Source of the DNA: Candidatus Peregrinibacteria bacterium CG10_big_fil_rev_8_21_14_0_10_49_16
GTDB taxonomy: Bacteria; Patescibacteriota; Gracilibacteria; Peribacterales; Peribacteraceae
DNA length: 64,000 nt
Assembly: GCA_002772605.1 (NCBI GenBank)
Contig: PFDS01000040.1
Coordinates: 14,862 to 78,861 of the forward strand
Direction: 5' to 3'
Shown: positions 33,622 through 54,427 of the stretch, in pieces
Layout of the letters: the number at the start of each line of letters is the position of its first letter
How positions within the stretch are numbered: position 1 is the stretch's first letter
Notes under the pieces: model-generated
Database searches by the model: none
Told to the model about the DNA's origin: nothing
What the model saw: the letters and a program-made list of their open reading frames with translations, nothing else
Made by a program: the position numbers and the translations under genes

Positions 33622-34335
33622 CTAAGCGGCGACATCCTCTAGTGAATGTTGATCTCTCCCTTTTGGATTATACACAGTAACTGTGCCTGGAGCATATTGA
33701 CCGCTCATGGCATCAGAAAGTGCATGAAACATAGTCTGGTTCATCCATAGCGTCTTATCTTTCCTATCTTGGGGACAGCGGACCACAATGAGCTGCATCA
33801 TTTCTGGTGACACTCTCTTATGAACAGCAAGTTCCGCGTTCGTGATGAAAGAAAAATCCTGCTCTACTCTTCGCACATCATCCGCAGTTGTGAGGGCAAT
33901 CACCATCGTTGAGTCCGCATCTGTCGTACCTTGTACATGTGCATAGTTGTAGAAAGTCGCATTAAAAAAGCGATCAACATCGTTCGTACCGGACGGATCA
34001 CCAAAAAAAGCCATACCAGATGTCCAGTAACTCGCTGCTCCTTCCGGAGTAACAGGATCGACTCCCTTTTCGTAGACCAAAGGTAATGCAGACGCTCTTT
34101 TCACTCCGTGAAACAGAAACTGCCCTCGCCTTGCCCGTTCTACAAATTCAACAACAGTCTGTGGCTCCACGCCGATAGTATCTGCAACTGTTCTACAAAA
34201 CTTTTCCACATGCGCATGCTGCAGTAACCGCTTCGCTGCTTCACGTATGCTATTAGCATCTTTTCCAAAAGACTCTGAGGAATGATCTGAGCTACTAGGT
34301 GTGTGTTTTTCGAAGGAAAACTCTGGAGACGTCAT
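33622..34335 (-). CDS. hypothetical protein
   Basis: 237 aa clean ORF. No family recognised. Confidence 0.5.
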   Translation of the reverse strand: MTSPEFSFEKHTPSSSDHSSESFGKDANSIREAAKRLLQHAHVEKFCRTVADTIGVEPQTVVEFVERARRGQFLFHGVKRASALPLVYEKGVDPVTPEGAASYWTSGMAFFGDPSGTNDVDRFFNATFYNYAHVQGTTDADSTMVIALTTADDVRRVEQDFSFITNAELAVHKRVSPEMMQLIVVRCPQDRKDKTLWMNQTMFHALSDAMSGQYAPGTVTVYNPKGRDQHSLEDVAA

Positions 34336-34384
34336 TATGTTAAATATAGTATAAATTTAATAAAAAGTCAATATTAGACATGAA

Positions 34385-34504
34385 TGGTGGACAGCACAGG
34401 ATTCGAATGCTGAAGGCATCCCTTGGGGACCTGTGACCTTTCGGATGTGAACCGAACGCTCTAATCCCGTAAGGGACCCCTTCGGGGCCAGCTGAGCTTA
34501 TTCC
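34385..34504 (-). ncRNA. tRNA-Val(CAC)-derived element with two hairpin insertions and no 5-prime acceptor strand
   Basis: Identical to the intact tRNA-Val over TTAGAGCGTTCGGTTCACATCCGAAAGGTCACAGG and TTCGAATCCTGTGCTGTCCACCA. It carries a 23 nt insert in the D-loop (34465-34487) and a 22 nt insert in the T-arm (34408-34429). The 5-prime end reads GGAATAAGCTCAG rather than GGACAGCTAGCTCAG. Confidence 0.7.
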
Positions 34505-34754
34505 AAAGTAAAAAACGAGTGATGACTAACTTTTCGAGATAGCCAGAAGGCTTTTTGAGGTACCATTCCCTTTTCCTTGCTTCGGAATTGGTCACATATT
34601 CTTCAAAATATGCCAAAAGCAAAGGTCTCCTCCATTTTGTAGAACGAACAGTTCCCGCAAGATGTCTGCACAAACGCTCATGAACATCCAGAGATGTACA
34701 ACCAATGTACCAACCTTGATCTTTCTCACTAAAAAGAAAATACACGTATGCCAT
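34461..34754 (-). CDS. GIY-YIG nuclease family protein (small, UPF0213-like)
   Basis: MAYVYFLFSEKDQGWYIGCTSLDVHERLCRHLAGTVRSTKWRRPLLLAYFEEY...ARKREWYLKK is the GIY-YIG pattern. The ATG lies 7 nt after the tRNA-Val CCA. The upstream part of the ORF in the track reads through the tRNA and is rejected. Confidence 0.75.
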   Translation of the reverse strand: MAYVYFLFSEKDQGWYIGCTSLDVHERLCRHLAGTVRSTKWRRPLLLAYFEEYVTNSEARKREWYLKKPSGYLEKLVITRFLLWNKLSWPRRGPLRD

Positions 34755-34761
34755 AAGAGAA

Positions 34762-34838
34762 TGGTGGACAGCACAGGATTCGAACCTGTGACCTTTCGGA
34801 TGTGAACCGAACGCTCTAACCAACTGAGCTAGCTGTCC
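34762..34838 (-). tRNA. tRNA-Val (anticodon CAC), CCA encoded
   Basis: Acceptor GGACAGC/GCTGTCC, D-arm GCTC-AGTTGGTTA-GAGC, anticodon stem TTCGG/CCGAA with loop TTCACAT, T-arm ACAGG-TTCGAAT-CCTGT. Confidence 0.9.
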
Positions 34839-34930
34839 AAAACCGGACTCATCATTGCAAAAATATAGGCAATAGAAAAGCCGCAATACATCCTGTACTA
34901 CGGCTGATCCTTCACGTCACCTCCTCCATG

Positions 34931-36295
34931 TCAGAAACTCGGCAGGAACCAGAGGCAGATCATGGCGATGAGCGTTGGCGGCAATGCTGCCAGCAGCAAC
35001 CATAACGAACTGATTTCACCGCTCCCGTTCTCCTTGAACGTGGAGTTCAAAATGGAATAGCCCGCCGGGTTTGGGGCATTGGCAATGACGGTCAGGCCAC
35101 CACCAGCTACTGCACCAGCCACTAACGCAAATTTCATCGCCTCGGACAAGTTCGGCACCTGCGACCCAAGGAAGGTCAATGCCGCATTGTCCGTTACGGC
35201 CGTCAGCCCGGTCGTCCCGAGAAACAAGGCTTCAGGACCCATGCTGCCAAGAAGCGGCTCCAGCCACCATCGCTGCAGTCCTCCCAACGTGACCAGCCCT
35301 GCAAGGAAGCCGCCCACGAGGAGACCGCCCTTCAACTTCAGGTCTTCCTGATACTCCTTCGTGACGAAACAGAAGGCCAGGAAGAAGACGAAGATTCCCA
35401 TGAAGATGTCGGGATGATGAGCATGCAGCACCACCAGTGCGAGAGTCGCAATGTGGACACAGGTCACCCACCACGGGGTATTCGGCAGTTTGGCCTCGCC
35501 TTCCCGTCCATGAATGTCGCTATCGCTCAGAAGCGGCAACTTCTTGAGTTCATGGTAGAAGAGCCAAACAAGAAGCGCTGCACTCAACAAAACGGCAGTC
35601 GCTGCCTTGTACCCAAAGTGCGTGAACATATAGGCCATGCCCCAGTTCCATGTTCCCGCAACCATCAGCACCGGCGGCGCCGCGAAGTGCGATAGCGTAC
35701 CCCCAATCGAGACAGACACGAACAGTGTTCCAATCAGCATGTACTTGAACTTCATGCTGATCCCCCGGTCGAAGAACTGCCGCTTCAGTACGAGCGCGGT
35801 CACCGTCATGGCAGCCGGTTCGGTCACCAGGGACCCTAGGAGCGGACCCACCACCATAGCCGACAGGAGAAACCCTGCAGAACCATGGAGAGGGATGAGA
35901 CGTGATACGAGCCGAATCAGCTTGTCGACCATGTCAACCACCGGCTTGGTCGCGGCGATCACCATGATGACGAAGACGAACTTCGGCTCCGTGTAATTCA
36001 ACGACTCAATGTAGTGGACTGCCTCATGCCATCCGTGATGAGCAGACTCCCATGCCGCAGCCAATGACCACCCGTGCTCGAAGTGATGGCTACTTCCCAG
36101 ATAGAAGATCATCACCCCGAAGAGGGCGCCGGCCCACATGAGGAAGACCGCTTCAGTCTCCCCCAACAAGTGGAAGAGATTTTCAAACTTGCTGCCCTCG
36201 GGAAATTTCTCCCCGAGTTTGTGAAACAATTTCGCACAGAACGTGTGCAAAATTGCCAATCCAAAGAGGATTGTCGCCACATGTTCGATTCGCAT
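34931..36295 (-). CDS. putative Na+/H+ antiporter-family membrane protein (Na_H_antiport_2-like)
   Basis: The start at 36295 is preceded by GGAGGAAAC. N-terminus MRIEHVATILFGLAILHTFCAKLF. Polytopic. G+C by hand count is 36/60 at 35221-35280 and 39/60 at 35821-35880. Confidence 0.6.
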   Translation of the reverse strand: MRIEHVATILFGLAILHTFCAKLFHKLGEKFPEGSKFENLFHLLGETEAVFLMWAGALFGVMIFYLGSSHHFEHGWSLAAAWESAHHGWHEAVHYIESLNYTEPKFVFVIMVIAATKPVVDMVDKLIRLVSRLIPLHGSAGFLLSAMVVGPLLGSLVTEPAAMTVTALVLKRQFFDRGISMKFKYMLIGTLFVSVSIGGTLSHFAAPPVLMVAGTWNWGMAYMFTHFGYKAATAVLLSAALLVWLFYHELKKLPLLSDSDIHGREGEAKLPNTPWWVTCVHIATLALVVLHAHHPDIFMGIFVFFLAFCFVTKEYQEDLKLKGGLLVGGFLAGLVTLGGLQRWWLEPLLGSMGPEALFLGTTGLTAVTDNAALTFLGSQVPNLSEAMKFALVAGAVAGGGLTVIANAPNPAGYSILNSTFKENGSGEISSLWLLLAALPPTLIAMICLWFLPSF

Positions 36296-51984: not shown

Positions 51985-52773
51985 TTAACCGACATAGTCC
52001 TCGCTGCGAGCCGGCGTTTCGTCGGCGGCCTCGTCGGCTTCGACACTGTCGAAGTCGGGGTCGGCCTGGGCATCCCGATGGGCACGAATCTCCGCAGCCT
52101 CTTCTTCCGTGACGCCCGTCTGGTACGGTTGCAGCTCATGGTAATTGCCGCAAACCGGGCACCAGCCCATCTTGGGTTCGGCGTCGTCGTCGTCATCATC
52201 GGAAATGCCCGCCTGTGCGCGATGCCACTCCGCCTGCCGTTGCCGCTCCGCATCCTCGGCCGGCGACCGGCCGATCGGATAGAGGGAAGCACCGACCAGT
52301 GGCTCGACATCGTCGTCAGCGAGTTCGGTGATCTCCTCTCGTCCGTCCCCATCGGGGTTGCGAACGACCACGACTTTTACCATTCGCGGCTGCTCGTCAC
52401 CGCCACCGAAGAGGTCGGAGAGGCTGAGAATCTGCAGACCCCCGCCACCGGACTGGGCCTTGCGCATCAGCGTGGCCATGGGATCCTCCGGCCGCTCCTC
52501 GACGGTTCCGACCAGGAACTCCCGAGGCCCCCGGTAGATCGCCACGGCACCGTTGTCGGGAAGCGGATTGCCGTCGATGATGCCCTCCGTGAGGAAGTGA
52601 TATTCCTGCCGGAAGATGGCGCCGACCGGCGGTTCCAGATCACCCGGACGCACGTTGGCCTCCGGCAACTCCACCGTACTGATGGAGCCCTGGAACCCGA
52701 AGTACGCCATGAGAACCTTTCGCTGACCGTTGATCGTGACAGCATCACCCGTGCGAACGTTTTGCGTCGCCAT
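51985..52773 (-). CDS. GC-island protein A, acidic, unknown function (262 aa)
   Basis: AGGAG lies 9 nt before the ATG at 52773. Third codon positions are G/C-rich. The product contains GWCPVCGNYHE, DDDDDD and an acidic tail. No family recognised. Confidence 0.65.
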   Translation of the reverse strand: MATQNVRTGDAVTINGQRKVLMAYFGFQGSISTVELPEANVRPGDLEPPVGAIFRQEYHFLTEGIIDGNPLPDNGAVAIYRGPREFLVGTVEERPEDPMATLMRKAQSGGGGLQILSLSDLFGGGDEQPRMVKVVVVRNPDGDGREEITELADDDVEPLVGASLYPIGRSPAEDAERQRQAEWHRAQAGISDDDDDDAEPKMGWCPVCGNYHELQPYQTGVTEEEAAEIRAHRDAQADPDFDSVEADEAADETPARSEDYVG

Positions 52774-52892
52774 GAGAAATTTCTCCTGTTGAAAATGTCC
52801 ATTGCAAAAGATCAAGCCCGGCAAACGCTGCCGGGCCCGTTCCTCCGCGATTCGCGAATGTGTGGACCCTGGCACGCGCCAGGACTTGGGAG

Positions 52893-52921
52893 AGGATAAG
52901 GATAGCATTGACAAAAGTCAA
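52893..52921 (-). promoter_or_regulatory. sigma70-like promoter for gene A, overlapped by a palindrome
   Basis: Minus strand: TTGACT-N17-TATCCT in an AT-rich patch. The palindrome TTGACAAAAGTCAA (52908-52921) covers the -35 box. Confidence 0.45.
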
Positions 52922-53009
52922 ATGTATTTTATGTAAATATTTTTAAACATATGGAAAGGACCACTCCTTGTGAGAGTGGCCCTTCGTTGTTTCGCGCGGT
53001 GAATCTCGA

Positions 53010-53216
53010 TCAGTTGTGGTACGTGCCGCAATTGGGGCAGAGCGGCAGCCCCTCCTCATTGTACGGGGGCAGGTCCACCGTCACGTCACTGTCGGCCAGC
53101 AACTCCGGCGGAACCGGGATGTCGGTCTGGACCAGACGGACCAGAACGACGCCCGGCGCGACCTCGTCGAGCTTGAGGGAAGTGATACGGAGGACGGGGG
53201 TGGCGTTGTTCGCCAT
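53010..53216 (-). CDS. GC-island protein B, unknown function (68 aa)
   Basis: AAGGAG lies 8 nt before the ATG at 53216. The product ends in LCPNCGTYHN. No family recognised. Confidence 0.6.
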   Translation of the reverse strand: MANNATPVLRITSLKLDEVAPGVVLVRLVQTDIPVPPELLADSDVTVDLPPYNEEGLPLCPNCGTYHN

Positions 53217-53322
53217 GTTCGAAACTCCTTCAGTTGAGATTCGTGCGAAAGAACTTTTCCCAGCGTACATAGCCGGGAGCTCCCTCGCACTGTGCGAGAC
53301 AGTCCCAGAAACTGGGATGGAA

Positions 53323-53351
53323 ATAATACTTAATTTTTAACCTACTGTCAA
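53323..53351 (-). promoter_or_regulatory. near-consensus sigma70 promoter for gene B
   Basis: Minus strand: TTGACA (53346-53351), 17 nt spacer, TATTAT (53323-53328). Confidence 0.6.
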
Positions 53352-53410
53352 GCAGGCCAACGCGGTGTACGCATTGGCCTGTTTTTGCATGGTTTTTGCC
53401 CCTTTTGCAT

Positions 53411-53614
53411 TTAGCGGGTGTAGGCCTCATGGATGACGTCATCCACCTCGCGTAGCGGTGGCGATTCCAGCCACAGCGGCTGCTCGGTCACCACAATGCG
53501 CAAGATGAGGACAAAGGACAGTTCCAGACCGTCCTCCCCTCCCTTCCGCTCCGCTTTTCGCGGATCGCCTTTCATGGATGACGCCAAAAGGCCACTCAGA
53601 AGTCGCATCTGCAT
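53411..53614 (-). CDS. GC-island protein C, unknown function (67 aa)
   Basis: AAGGAGA lies 9 nt before the ATG at 53614. Only the 3-prime part of track ORF 53411..54034 is kept, because the rest is antisense to rsmI. Confidence 0.45.
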   Translation of the reverse strand: MQMRLLSGLLASSMKGDPRKAERKGGEDGLELSFVLILRIVVTEQPLWLESPPLREVDDVIHEAYTR

Positions 53615-53755
53615 ACTCTTCAGTCTCCTTGAGAACCATGCGAAAGAACGTGGCTTAGACACCTCGTCAAACCACCCTCTTCCGTCTAAACCGCCACTCA
53701 GTGTGTGAAGAGTTCGCTGCAAGTCAAGGGTCAAAAGGAGTATTCTTCTAAATAC

Positions 53756-54427
53756 ATGCTTTCCATCGTCTCCACCCCTATCGGCAATCTCGGTGACATC
53801 ACACTGCGCGCCCTTGAAACACTGAAGGAATGTGATGCCATCGTGTGTGAAGATACGCGAGTCACGGGAAAACTCCTCCAGATGCTGGATCTCCCGAAGA
53901 AGGAACTCATCAGCCTGCACGGGTATTCCGACACGAAGAAAATCAATGCCATCCTCAAGCGACTCGCAGAAGGAGCACATCTTGCTCTCGTCTCCGACGC
54001 CGGCACACCATGCATCAGTGATCCGGGATATCAACTAGTGAGTGTCGCCCTTCGACAGGGTGACACTCATCAAGTCGAAGTCATCCCCGGACCTTCCGCA
54101 TTCCTTGCTGCCCTCTCCGCATCAGGCCTCCCCATCAATCAATTTCTCTACCTCGGATTTCTTCCATTGAAGAAAGGACGTCAAACACTTCTTGCATCAT
54201 TCACAGAAGAGAAACGCACGATTGTCTTCTACGAATCCGTCCATCGCATAGAAAAAACACTTCGCGAACTCGTGGGCGCACTGCGTGATCAACCCAACCG
54301 TGACATCGTCATCTGTCGTGAACTGACAAAAATGCACGAAGAAATTCTTCGCACAACGGTTGCGGAACTTGCGAGTATTTCTCTTACACAAAAAGGAGAA
54401 TTCGTCATTGTCATTGGAGCAGTGTAG
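53756..54427 (+). CDS. rsmI: 16S rRNA (cytidine1402-2-prime-O)-methyltransferase RsmI
   Basis: MLSIVSTPIGNLGDITLRALETL, DAGTPCISDPG. Confidence 0.88.
   Translation: MLSIVSTPIGNLGDITLRALETLKECDAIVCEDTRVTGKLLQMLDLPKKELISLHGYSDTKKINAILKRLAEGAHLALVSDAGTPCISDPGYQLVSVALRQGDTHQVEVIPGPSAFLAALSASGLPINQFLYLGFLPLKKGRQTLLASFTEEKRTIVFYESVHRIEKTLRELVGALRDQPNRDIVICRELTKMHEEILRTTVAELASISLTQKGEFVIVIGAV

Follow-up and report, generated by a model that had tools for sequence, protein, structure and literature searches.

The closest known parallel to the locus described here is the phage gene segB. SegB is a free-standing GIY-YIG homing endonuclease encoded in the tRNA gene cluster of phages T4 and T6 (PMC2330249; PMC13096335); it cuts within tRNA genes at the motif RAWTSGAAC, and tandem tRNA-plus-segB repeats have arisen by homologous recombination (PMC13096335). 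By our own reading, this motif is the reverse complement of the T-loop box. In REP/RAYT systems, a single-copy RAYT gene is flanked by short G+C-rich palindromes (REPs) that are also dispersed in intergenic DNA; RAYT clades pair with different repeat sequences, and the RAYTs themselves are HUH/Y1 transposases. Stand-alone bacterial SLX1-like GIY-YIG proteins were grouped as the “Slx1 cluster, non-Eukaryota” in a 2006 survey by Dunin-Horkawicz et al. (PMC1564403). They are described as enzymes that probably act in repair or recombination and whose function is unknown; the survey makes no mention of a link to tRNA genes or hairpin repeats. Finally, genomic islands and prophages insert into tRNA genes by means of integrases, leaving att duplications (PMC9897764, referring to Williams 2002).

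The locus of interest lies within a 64-kb window, i.e., the whole stretch of 64,000 nt that was analyzed, and an initial annotation made from the sequence had described it as an intact tRNA-Val(CAC), a 7-nt gap, a 97-aa GIY-YIG ORF, and a second tRNA-Val-derived copy, in that order on the minus strand. This order was confirmed with ARAGORN, Rfam, and the Pfam family PF01541, and the features, read 5' to 3' along the minus strand, are as follows.

34838-34762, minus strand: intact tRNA-Val(CAC), 77 nt with encoded CCA, found by ARAGORN and as a full-length match to Rfam RF00005
34761-34755, minus strand: 7-nt spacer TTCTCTT, separating the ATG from the 3' end of the tRNA, read from the sequence
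34754-34461, minus strand: GIY-YIG ORF of 97 aa with an ATG start, matching PF01541
34498-34488, minus strand: relic of the D-arm 5' half, AGCTCAGCTGG, within the 3' end of the ORF, 10/11 identical to the resident tRNA
34487-34465, minus strand: D-loop insert of 23 nt, CCCCGAAGGGGTCCCTTACGGGA, after G19, read from the sequence
34464-34430, minus strand: second-copy tRNA-Val positions 20-54, from the 3' half of the D-stem through the anticodon arm and variable region to the 5' half of the T-stem, matching the intact gene at 35/35 nt
34429-34408, minus strand: T-loop insert of 22 nt, TCCCCAAGGGATGCCTTCAGCA, read from the sequence
34407-34385, minus strand: second-copy tRNA-Val positions 55-77, with the T loop, the 3' half of the T-stem, the 3' acceptor strand, and CCA, matching the intact gene at 23/23 nt

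The tRNA-Val(CAC) at 34762-34838 (Rfam score 72.7 bits, E 1e-15) is the functional copy kept upstream of the ORF. As annotated initially, the second copy is missing the 5' acceptor strand and is interrupted by two inserts, one of 23 nt in the D loop and one of 22 nt in the T arm, the latter lying in the T loop. Its extent, given as 34504-34385, needs a small correction: the end at 34385 holds, but recognizable tRNA homology begins at about 34498. Likewise, the perfect identity reported for the tRNA parts holds for positions 20-54 and 55-77 but not for the 5' part of the D arm, where there is one mismatch in 11 as well as a difference at position 8. The ORF does run into the D-loop insert and end in the D-stem: its 3' end reads through AGCTCAGCTGG and the insert to a stop that is the TAG of TTAGAGC, so that the D-arm relic and the D-loop insert supply the codons of the C-terminal tail KLSWPRRGPLRD. 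The intact tRNA and the second copy share an exact repeat of 36 nt, for which shuffled sequence gave 0 matches. It had been considered that the inserts might be assembly artifacts; however, contigs of three independent origins (JGI 3300004210, ENA ERZ27293414, and Logan SRR6240789) agree at every position of the whole 597-nt interval, and the arrangement is therefore not an assembly artifact. No promoter-like site was found between tRNA-Val and the ORF. The 7-nt spacer is too short for a separate promoter, which suggests that tRNA and ORF are co-transcribed, and the corresponding spacers at related loci are 4-23 nt long.

The 97-aa protein matches PF01541 over residues 1-70 with 45.8 bits (cut-off 22.6, E 7.4e-12). 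Across 18 homologues, Y5 (the Tyr of GIY), Y16-I17-G18, R27, H31, and E63 are invariant, and we take these residues to have the catalytic roles assigned to their equivalents in the superfamily. Among PDB profiles, the best matches were 1zg2 (9.6e-12) and 1ywl (2.2e-9), followed by eukaryotic SLX1 (2e-6 to 8e-4) and, marginally, I-TevI (0.017). The two UPF0213 proteins among these, BH0048 (1zg2) and EF2693 (1ywl), have the same minimal size and conserved residues as the window protein, which by profile similarity is classed as a minimal SLX1/UPF0213-type GIY-YIG domain rather than one of I-TevI/UvrC type. The DNA-binding domain typical of sequence-specific homing endonucleases is absent from the 97-aa protein, which consists of the catalytic domain alone. 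Searches of NCBIfam and PHROGs gave no informative family for the ORF, and a protein search of 50,697 phage records returned weak matches from Rhizobium phages only, so that the gene does not appear to be a common phage gene. The profile itself retrieved 19,672 clusters (50% identity) at E up to 1e-3 and 4,155 at E up to 1e-10. The invariant residues, together with nucleotide differences between two ORF copies at the related locus L002 that fall mostly at third codon positions in the core, where divergence is synonymous only, indicate that the ORF is under selection and presumably functional.

Similar arrangements were found at many other tRNA genes. A genome scan with a profile built from 13 relatives of the ORF yielded 46 loci, found via the protein alone, in Patescibacteria, Bacteroidota, and other phyla. 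At 31 of these, a same-strand tRNA starts between -37 and +31 nt from the ORF end; some of the remaining loci have a tRNA ending at most 32 nt upstream of the ORF, and approximately 40 of the 46 have a same-strand tRNA within 450 nt. The tRNAs at the scan loci are of the isotypes Ser, Arg, Tyr, Thr, Lys, Glu, Ile, Phe, and Ala, to which other searches added Val, Pro, and Met, for a total of more than 11. At most loci, a partial copy of the adjoining tRNA lies beyond the ORF, with G+C-rich hairpins breaking it in or beside the tRNA loops. These inserts are 16-48 nt long, and 20 of the 22 that could be strictly scored lie in tRNA loops or at the loop-stem border, 13 of the 20 being in the D loop. 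The D loop is not always hit, as the leftover copies at L030 and L033 have an intact D arm. Among the closest relatives with the same layout as the window locus are L175 (Val-TAC), whose ORF shares 67% amino acid identity with that of the window, L004 (Ile-GAT), L002 (Pro-TGG), L149 (Met-CAT), and L005 (GAC anticodon of valine type, taken from the stretch of its sequence that is not masked). Each of the five leftover copies corresponds to the tRNA at its own locus. The partial copy at most related loci is a 5' fragment of the tRNA, 12-47 nt long, and its ORF-nearest end varies from about position 20 to 47 without being restricted to loops; the boundary thus looks like a product of erosion or variable recombination rather than of a fixed cut. 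An RNA-mediated origin from mature tRNA was also considered and rejected, as the L004 copies end without CCA, like the gene itself.

This recurrence bears on whether the locus is an att-type duplication by an integrase, an option raised in the initial annotation, or a neutrally decaying tandem tRNA with the GIY-YIG ORF as a chance neighbor. Integration of elements into tRNA genes is a known, common source of partial copies (PMC9897764), and the 3' portion of the tRNA is duplicated here, as at many att sites. However, the repeats in the window flank only about 0.4 kb, with a single 97-aa GIY-YIG ORF and no recombinase between them, whereas integrase islands insert 9-120 kb; the ORF family adjoins tRNAs in roughly 40 of 46 loci; and the duplicated part can be 5' or 3', being 5' in most loci. 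Unlike att duplications, these loci also carry exact hairpin inserts in the tRNA loops, and in the window these structured inserts are accompanied by 58/58 identity elsewhere, with no scattered substitutions. We consider either form of this explanation very improbable.

The locus would instead fit the first option of the initial annotation, a tRNA-targeting GIY-YIG element that has duplicated its target, which is consistent with the recurrence at tRNA genes, with an empty syntenic site, and with tandem and ORF-less derivatives. In a Peribacteria relative, the gene order dcd, antiporter, tRNA-Val(CAC), rluA is kept, and tRNA-Val stands alone, accompanied by neither a GIY-YIG ORF nor hairpins. 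This relative is distant (64% identity in the antiporter) and its tRNA-Val is inverted; all contigs of the window organism were occupied, and no presence/absence polymorphism was seen among them. Comparison of empty and occupied sites thus gave an empty site in the distant relative only. Tandem units are present at L002, L137, and L149, ORF-less derivatives at L052, L074, L077, L126, L128, and L169, and disrupted ORFs at L016, L046, and in the second ORF of L137.

The two inserts of the window locus differ in history. The D-loop insert consists of two mini-hairpins, CCCC-GAA-GGGG and TCCC-TTAC-GGGA, and the T-loop insert of TCCC-CAA-GGGA and TGC-CTTCA-GCA, the second of these being partly degenerate. 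The latter insert splits GGT|TCGAATCC and, as read from the sequence, departs from the family consensus xCCCTTCGGGx at pair 2-10, where C-G is replaced by G-C. Both are placed exactly and without target duplication, with an ambiguity of 1 nt in the T loop. In L175, the closest relative, the D-loop insert occupies the same position and is identical at 22 of 23 nt, despite an identity of only about 61% in the ORF DNA; the T-loop insert is absent there. The T-loop insert is a later, separate insertion from the same module family. The D-loop insert also marks a junction between cassette-side and resident-tRNA-side sequence: across related loci, its ORF-distal flank is identical to the resident tRNA at 268/275 positions, compared with 230/275 for the ORF-proximal flank (Fisher p 1.7e-8).

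Could the second copy instead be a functional tRNA-like RNA with expansion hairpins, serving the cell or the cassette, for instance as a 3' stabilizer of the ORF mRNA or as a partner of the protein? The tandem units of L002 differ at 17 of 284 nt in the ORF part and at 0 of 110 nt in the tRNA-derived part, inserts included. The contrast bears out the initial argument that identity beside structured inserts is not what neutral decay produces, and constancy of this kind would be expected of such an RNA, as would the covariation of hairpin pairs described below, the avoidance of stems by the inserts, and the position of the module, always at the ORF end opposite the intact tRNA, where an mRNA end would need protection. 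Against this, the copy lacks an acceptor stem and was called as a tRNA by neither ARAGORN nor Rfam (E up to 10); a search of all Rfam families over 34000-35200 at the same threshold found the intact tRNA alone and nothing for the second copy or its inserts. A self-splicing intron in the tRNA gene was rejected from the same search, in which no group I or group II family matched. The predicted minimum-energy fold of the second copy pairs the inserts with each other and forms no cloverleaf, with a modest z-score of -2.2. Most related copies are, moreover, mere 5' fragments, the number and position of inserts vary among close relatives, and strand information is absent, the hairpins being symmetric. 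This option of the initial annotation is accordingly improbable.

Beyond the locus, the hairpin module is not restricted to such cassettes but forms a dispersed repeat family, mostly located away from tRNAs and GIY-YIG genes. Among 128 module sites scanned in metagenome contigs, 13 have a GIY-YIG ORF no more than 400 nt away, and 22 a tRNA no more than 500 nt away. Module positions 12 and 22 form a Watson-Crick pair at 132 of 144 sites (57 expected), with four pair types, and this covariation, together with the conservation of the insert in L175, shows that the mini-hairpins are structurally constrained. A single 22-bp palindrome, such as a dimer-binding site in duplex DNA, does not describe the module, since positions 5 and 18 are complementary in just 44 of 144 sites and the outer pairs co-change within one mini-hairpin. 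A flanking stem of at least 6 bp surrounds the module at 9% of sites (1.9% of controls). The idea that a larger hairpin invariably holds the module in its loop was nevertheless discarded, as this applies to a minority only (perfect stem of at least 5 bp at 17% of sites compared with 6% of controls). Across ORF clades and phyla, the hairpin types include CCCCGAAGGGG/xCCCTTCGGGx, CCTGCCTGCCGGCAGGCAGG, and TCCCGCC...GGCGGGA plus CCCCGCC...GGCGGGG, and both palindrome types co-occur on single contigs at L059 and L104. At nearly every ORF locus, a hairpin, single or paired, lies no more than about 60 nt from an ORF end, even where no tRNA fragment is recognizable (L010, L013). The separate origin of the two inserts, the dispersed module family, and the minimal SLX1-like nature of the nuclease are observations that go beyond the initial annotation.

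These distributions raise the possibility of a REP/RAYT-like system, in which the dispersed double mini-hairpin would be the real mobile unit and the GIY-YIG protein its cognate structure-specific nuclease, selfish or domesticated. The tRNA copies beside the gene would then merely tolerate hairpin insertion, so that this explanation overlaps with that of a cassette in tRNA genes and reverses which part is primary. It would account for the roughly 90% of module sites that are not near a GIY-YIG ORF, the hairpins flanking nearly all ORF loci with or without a tRNA fragment, the variation of hairpin sequence with ORF clade and host phylum, the exact inserts lacking target duplications, the secondary inserts in T, anticodon, and variable loops, which are separate events, and the modules within loops of larger hairpins. 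However, co-variation of hairpin type with ORF clade may merely reflect host phylum, and the types co-occur on single contigs. Strand transfer is beyond a hydrolytic GIY-YIG nuclease alone, and no filled/empty pair was found at non-tRNA sites. A search for other GIY-YIG ORFs and further insert copies, as the initial annotation had suggested, found neither in the 64-kb window; unlike REPs, the module is not dispersed there but confined to the tRNA copy. The likeness to REP/RAYT is one of layout only, as the enzyme is a GIY-YIG hydrolase and not an HUH/Y1 transposase, and REPs are not known from the loops of tRNA gene copies. Taken as a whole, this explanation is possible but rather unlikely.

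We favor, with moderate confidence, the explanation that the locus is one copy of a widespread selfish nuclease cassette living in tRNA transcription units. Such a cassette would comprise a stand-alone GIY-YIG gene of SLX1/UPF0213 type, encoding about 90 aa, and a G+C-rich hairpin module at one end. A partial tRNA duplication would leave one complete tRNA, here the upstream tRNA-Val(CAC), and a truncated leftover beyond the ORF, here positions 9/20-77. Beyond the D-loop hairpins the sequence would stay that of the resident tRNA, while the ORF side would travel and diverge with the cassette. The ORF, having no promoter of its own, would be read from the tRNA promoter. By analogy with SegB, the protein may be an active nuclease with a tRNA-gene target, breaking cassette-free tRNA genes at the D-loop/T-loop boxes or at loop structures of the tDNA, and recombinational repair of the break could then copy and amplify the cassette. 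Candidate routes for the partial duplication are a long staggered cut, ends-in recombination, and template switching. The hairpins may have a protective role: by destroying the D-/T-loop boxes of the leftover, they would make it neither a tRNA nor a target any longer, and they would also break a direct repeat otherwise able to delete the ORF. The intact tRNA beside the ORF keeps uninterrupted D-/T-loop boxes, and the immunity argument is thus incomplete.

SegB provides a precedent for this cassette explanation. In both cases a GIY-YIG nuclease gene lies among same-strand tRNA genes, both are co-localized with tRNAs of many isotypes, and the tandem tRNA-plus-segB units are comparable to those of L002, L137, and L149. 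By contrast, SegB is larger, belongs to the homing-endonuclease/UvrC branch, and carries a DNA-binding region, whereas the 97-aa protein belongs to the SLX1/UPF0213 branch and consists of a catalytic domain only. SegB is also a phage gene, while the cassettes are found in cellular genomes, and hairpin-interrupted partial tRNA copies have not been described for it. The interpretation given in the initial annotation, which made no choice among its three options, is, as a whole, partly supported.

A bolder and unlikely variant, offered tentatively, is that hairpin and SLX1-like nuclease together form a new structure-guided mobile system that places 22-nt modules in loops of single-stranded DNA. 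The nuclease would recognize not a sequence but the loops of folded ssDNA, for example those of tDNA cloverleaves or of other hairpins; modules would be placed exactly, alone or together with the nuclease gene or other cargo, and without target duplication, and tRNA genes would survive only if a partial duplication accompanied the event. If true, this would represent a nuclease-based analogue of REP/RAYT and give a role to part of the UPF0213 family. The exact placement of hairpins in tRNA loops does point to a structure-directed DNA transaction.

The searchable literature, which covers few subscription journals, yielded no account of small GIY-YIG genes that are flanked by tRNAs and accompanied by hairpin-broken tRNA copies, and such an absence is not proof of novelty. 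The cassettes are probably a little-noticed family of selfish DNA in the tRNA genes of several phyla, and they account for tRNA gene fragments and odd ORF extensions that mislead annotation. If the cassette explanation is true, selfish elements in tRNA transcription units would provide a biological context for a very large family of small proteins whose function is unknown. The SegB principle, by which a GIY-YIG nuclease makes use of conserved sequence in tRNA genes and is amplified along with tRNA DNA, would also extend from phages to cellular organisms in several phyla, among them the Patescibacteria with their small genomes.

On the minus strand, the locus consists of a small GIY-YIG ORF placed between an intact tRNA-Val(CAC) gene and a second, partial copy of that tRNA, which is interrupted by two hairpin inserts:

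34838-34762, minus strand: intact tRNA-Val(CAC), 77 nt (ARAGORN; full-length Rfam match, 72.7 bits)
34761-34755, minus strand: spacer, 7 nt (from the sequence)
34754-34461, minus strand: GIY-YIG ORF, 97 aa (PF01541, E 7.4e-12)
34498-34488, minus strand: relic of the 5' half of the D arm, AGCTCAGCTGG, 10/11 identical to the tRNA
34487-34465, minus strand: D-loop insert CCCCGAAGGGGTCCCTTACGGGA, 23 nt
34464-34430, minus strand: tRNA positions 20-54 in the second copy, 35/35 identical
34429-34408, minus strand: T-loop insert TCCCCAAGGGATGCCTTCAGCA, 22 nt
34407-34385, minus strand: tRNA positions 55-77 including CCA in the second copy, 23/23 identical

The 3' codons of the ORF cross the relic and the D-loop insert, ending at the TAG of TTAGAGC. 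The second copy lacks the 5' acceptor strand and was called neither by the tRNA finder nor by the Rfam model. Its 36-nt exact repeat with the tRNA is beyond chance, as shuffles gave 0 matches. The initial annotation had allowed that the inserts might be assembly artefacts, which is ruled out by the identity of this segment across contigs of three independent data sources; the search that it suggested for further GIY-YIG ORFs or hairpin-module copies found none within the 64-kb window. The best named homologues of the ORF and of the adjacent antiporter are both from Candidatus Peribacteria, and the organism is, judged from sequence, a relative of this group.

Several other features of the window were observed. 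A 141-aa TTG-started ORF (34461-34886, minus strand) spans the intact tRNA-Val into the GIY-YIG frame. The database protein P0002 has 160 aa, and many family members carry 20-60-aa N-terminal extensions; these are probably read-through miscalls of tRNA or hairpin DNA. Directly after the second tRNA copy, a promoter-like site (34343-34371, minus strand; TTGACT, 17 nt, TATATT; 10/12 matches) precedes a 237-aa ORF (33622-34335) that has no Pfam match. The G+C content of 52001-54000 is 0.58, versus 0.43-0.52 in the rest of the window.

Protein searches with the window ORF identified the same design at other tRNA genes (L handles denote the loci and contigs compared). The closest relative of the ORF (67% aa identity) is found at L175, where tRNA-Val(TAC), 4 nt, the ORF, and a tRNA-Val(TAC) copy follow one another, the copy carrying a D-loop insert only (CCCCGAAGGGGTCCCTTTCGGGA), positioned as in the window. 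The D-loop inserts of the two loci are 22/23 identical and the ORF DNA ~61%. The T-loop insert of the window, in which the second hairpin is partly degenerate with a swapped G-C pair kept, is missing from L175 and is thus a second, later insertion. In L002 (Peribacteraceae), tRNA-Pro(TGG) is followed by two tandem units, each an ORF plus a tRNA-Pro copy with 22-nt D-loop and 22-nt T-loop inserts; in L004 (Saccharibacteria), tRNA-Ile(GAT) and the ORF are followed by a copy with D-loop and anticodon-loop inserts; and in L005, the resident tRNA has a GAC anticodon of valine type (legible in the unmasked stretch of the sequence) and the copy a D-loop insert only.

A protein-profile scan of one genome per species returned 46 loci from Patescibacteria, Bacteroidota, MAGs labelled Gammaproteobacteria, Omnitrophota, and others. 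A same-strand tRNA starts at -37 to +31 nt of the ORF end in 31 of these, several further loci have a tRNA ending no more than 32 nt upstream of the ORF, and about 40 have a same-strand tRNA within 450 nt. As the loci were chosen by protein sequence alone, this association is not a selection effect. The arrangement is therefore a family, not a single case, which fits the earlier suggestion of a tRNA-targeting GIY-YIG element with a duplicated target. Altogether, 19,672 clusters (50% identity) match the profile at E ≤1e-3, and 4,155 at E ≤1e-10.

Two mirror-image layouts occur, both with G+C-rich hairpin inserts in the redundant copy. In type A, seen in the window, the intact tRNA is followed by a short spacer, the ORF, and a copy of the tRNA 3' part, and the ORF-proximal tRNA-like stretch encodes a conserved tail, KLSWP. 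In the commoner type B, a copy of the tRNA 5' part (positions 1 to ~12-47) precedes the ORF and the intact tRNA, and the ORF commonly terminates within the 5' end of the latter, with tails such as GGVA and then TAG. At L030, the copy before the ORF is a full-length tRNA-Arg(TCT) bearing a single insert, and the intact tRNA-Arg(TCT) follows the ORF. At the type B loci L012:2744-2758, L009, L010, L013, L018, and others, the ORF end lies 10-37 nt into the downstream intact tRNA; the stop codon is often the D-loop TAG, and the protein tails are GGVA or GGFA. RNase P cutting at the tRNA 5' end would strip this stop codon from the mRNA, and tRNA processing may possibly be coupled to nuclease expression.

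The inserts are of three lineage-dependent types: a 22-nt pair of mini-hairpins in Patescibacteria (CCCC-RAA-GGGG + xCCC-TTY-GGGx), the 20-nt palindrome CCTGCCTGCCGGCAGGCAGG in Bacteroidota, and, in a third group, TCCCGCC...GGCGGGA + CCCCGCC...GGCGGGG with loops of 3 to ~30 nt. Of 22 inserts retained under strict alignment criteria, 20 fall within a loop or where a loop meets a stem: 13 in the D loop, 5 in the T loop, and 1 each in the anticodon and variable loops. Of the two exceptions, L030 is an alignment ambiguity (by eye, the anticodon loop border) and L017 a fragment end. The chance of touching a loop is ~62%, giving p ~0.0025, a value that treats the inserts as more independent than they are, since some of the D-loop cases are orthologues of one another. 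We also compared 11 nt on each side of the D-loop insert with the resident intact tRNA in 25 copies. The ORF-distal side was identical at 268/275 positions (perfect in 21/25 copies), versus 230/275 on the ORF-proximal side (Fisher p 1.7e-8); in the window, the ORF side reads AGCTCAGCTGG versus AGCTCAGTTGG in the tRNA, and 58/58 nt beyond the insert are identical. The simplest reading would be that the D-loop insert is a boundary, with the ORF-proximal tRNA-like stretch moving and diverging with the cassette and the distal part coming from the local tRNA. The window cassette and its close relatives occupy Val-CAC, Val-TAC, Val-GAC, Ile-GAT, Pro-TGG, and Met-CAT hosts, which share the D-arm sequence TAGCTCAGTTGGTTAGAGC, and in each host the leftover copy matches its own local tRNA; the cassette has therefore changed its tRNA host repeatedly.

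The hairpin module is not confined to these loci. Scanning metagenome contigs for exact matches to the pattern CCCCNAAGGGGNCCCTTNGGG gave at least 120 stretches. Among the matches listed, 13/128 module sites had a GIY-YIG ORF within 400 nt and 22/128 a tRNA within 500 nt, so the module is a dispersed short repeat; the other sites among these matches are intergenic, often A+T-rich or beside short tandem repeats. Some sit at the tips of larger hairpins (flanking stem of at least 6 bp in 9% versus 1.9% of controls). Positions 12 and 22, the latter outside the search pattern, pair in 132 of the 144 unique sites among the matches listed versus 57 expected from base frequencies, with all four Watson-Crick types present. 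A single long palindrome was rejected as the conserved feature, since its expected partners, positions 5 and 18, are unpaired. The conserved object is thus the mini-hairpin pair in a single strand (DNA or RNA), and the module symmetry is uninformative on strand. Viewed from the ORF side, the link to hairpins is nearly universal (in ~40/46 loci, one hairpin or a pair of them lies no more than ~60 nt from an end of the ORF). Both the scattered distribution of the module and its exact insertion into loops without duplication favour the strongest rival reading, namely that the module is the primary repeated unit, the GIY-YIG protein its structure-specific enzyme, and the tRNA copies tolerated landing sites, as with REP sequences and RAYT. 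We nevertheless consider this unlikely, as the module is found nowhere else in the window and GIY-YIG enzymes are without strand-transfer chemistry.

Individual module sites showed further variety. On metagenome contig ERZ1292632...127833 (L066:121-290), the arms of a hairpin (TCCCGCAGAA ... TCTGCGGGA) enclose a complete tRNA-Gly(CCC), and this hairpin in turn interrupts the D loop of a second, split tRNA-like sequence (GCGACAGTAGTTCAGTGGTA ... CCAAGCAGAAGATCGCCGGTTCGATCCCGGTCTGTCGCTCA); apparently, hairpins inserted into tRNA loops can carry cargo. L059:165-260 and L104:4660-4730 have a Patescibacteria-type double mini-hairpin within 100 nt of the Bacteroidota-type palindrome on the same contig, so both families can coexist in one genome. 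Many dispersed copies (L058, L088, L095, L099, L107, L115) lie inside 6-8-nt short tandem repeats, such as CTAATCA in L088 and GGAACGC in L107. The subfamily CCCCRAAGGGGCCCCTTTGGGC, with a mismatched C-C outer pair 12-22 (L062, L072, L082, L093, L108), is always within a longer repeat, CGTTG-module-ATATATTG, with more single mini-hairpins nearby, several per contig, and looks like a distinct composite repeat.

The comparison of occupied and empty sites proposed in the initial annotation could be made with a Peribacteria relative in which the gene order dcd, antiporter, tRNA-Val(CAC), rluA is conserved. The tRNA-Val stands alone there, with neither a GIY-YIG ORF nor hairpins at the syntenic site (L173:3924-4000, L174:3924-4000). 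The relative is distant (64% antiporter identity) and its tRNA-Val inverted relative to the antiporter gene; by sequence comparison, this counts as an empty site, though not a close one. The D loop of this tRNA-Val is AGCTCAGCTGG, the variant of the window relic and not of the window's intact tRNA. Derivatives include tandem units (L002, L137, L149), disrupted ORFs (L016, L046, the second ORF of L137), and arrangements in which the same tRNA fragment and hairpin occur without an ORF. The last of these comprise 5' fragments (L052, L074, L126, L128, L169) and, in L077, two 3' copies of tRNA-Leu in tandem that have the module in their T loops.

The two L002 units differ at 17/284 nt in spacer and ORF, and the core changes fall mostly at third codon positions, indicating purifying selection on the ORF. 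By contrast, the tRNA-derived part with its two inserts shows no difference (0/110 nt; Poisson p 0.0014), in line with the earlier argument that identity beside structured inserts is not neutral decay; this part is either homogenised or constrained. A functional tRNA-like RNA, another option raised earlier, is very improbable: the acceptor stem is missing, most relatives have short 5' fragments only, the inserts vary, and the predicted fold is not a cloverleaf, the two inserts pairing together (-45.9 kcal/mol, z -2.2). In this fold, 34465-34487 and 34408-34429 pair around the anticodon arm and replace four mini-hairpins, which may be a mere result of two near-palindromes of one family. Prokaryotic tRNA fragments are known to originate from integrase-mediated insertion or CRISPR activity (PMC9897764). 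An att-like duplication by an integrase, or a neutral pseudogene, does not fit the gene content of the locus or its recurrence at related loci, and we give it hardly any credence.

The family profile matches, in order, the UPF0213 structures 1zg2 (9.6e-12) and 1ywl (2.2e-9) and eukaryotic SLX1, with I-TevI marginal. The Tyr of the GIY motif, the Y-I-G motif, R27, H31, and E63 are invariant, and the window protein has no DNA-binding domain. The profile matches place it in the "Slx1 cluster, non-Eukaryota", which a 2006 survey of the superfamily describes as minimal domains of unknown role, with no tRNA-gene link noted (PMC1564403).

On balance, we favour reading the locus as a selfish nuclease cassette that resides within tRNA transcription units. 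The ORF would be transcribed from the tRNA promoter, given the 7-nt gap, the lack of a promoter-like site between tRNA-Val and the ORF, and the constant same-strand orientation. The nuclease might cut cassette-free tRNA genes at the conserved D-loop or T-loop boxes or at loop structures of folded tDNA, and recombinational repair would then copy or amplify the cassette, the partial duplication saving one tRNA. This duplication might arise by a long staggered cut reaching from the D loop to the end of the gene, by ends-in recombination of a cut intermediate, or by template switching. By splitting the boxes of the leftover copy (between AGCTCAGTTGG and TTAGAGC, and between GGT and TCGAATCC), the inserts would make it neither tRNA nor target and would interrupt the direct repeat able to delete the ORF. 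Two weak points of this mechanism are a bare catalytic domain without obvious means of sequence reading and an intact tRNA beside the ORF that retains both boxes.

A precedent is SegB, a phage GIY-YIG homing endonuclease widely co-localised with tRNAs, which cleaves within tRNA genes at RAWTSGAAC and yields tandem tRNA-plus-segB repeats via homologous recombination (PMC13096335, PMC2330249); by our own reading, RAWTSGAAC is the reverse complement of the T-loop box GTTCGAATC. Full-text literature, in which few subscription journals were covered, yielded no account of small GIY-YIG genes that have a tRNA on one side and a hairpin-interrupted tRNA copy on the other. Free-standing GIY-YIG nuclease genes associated with tRNAs, and target-restoring insertion into tRNA genes, are already known, whereas the different nuclease lineage, the cellular hosts across phyla, and the hairpin module appear to be new here.
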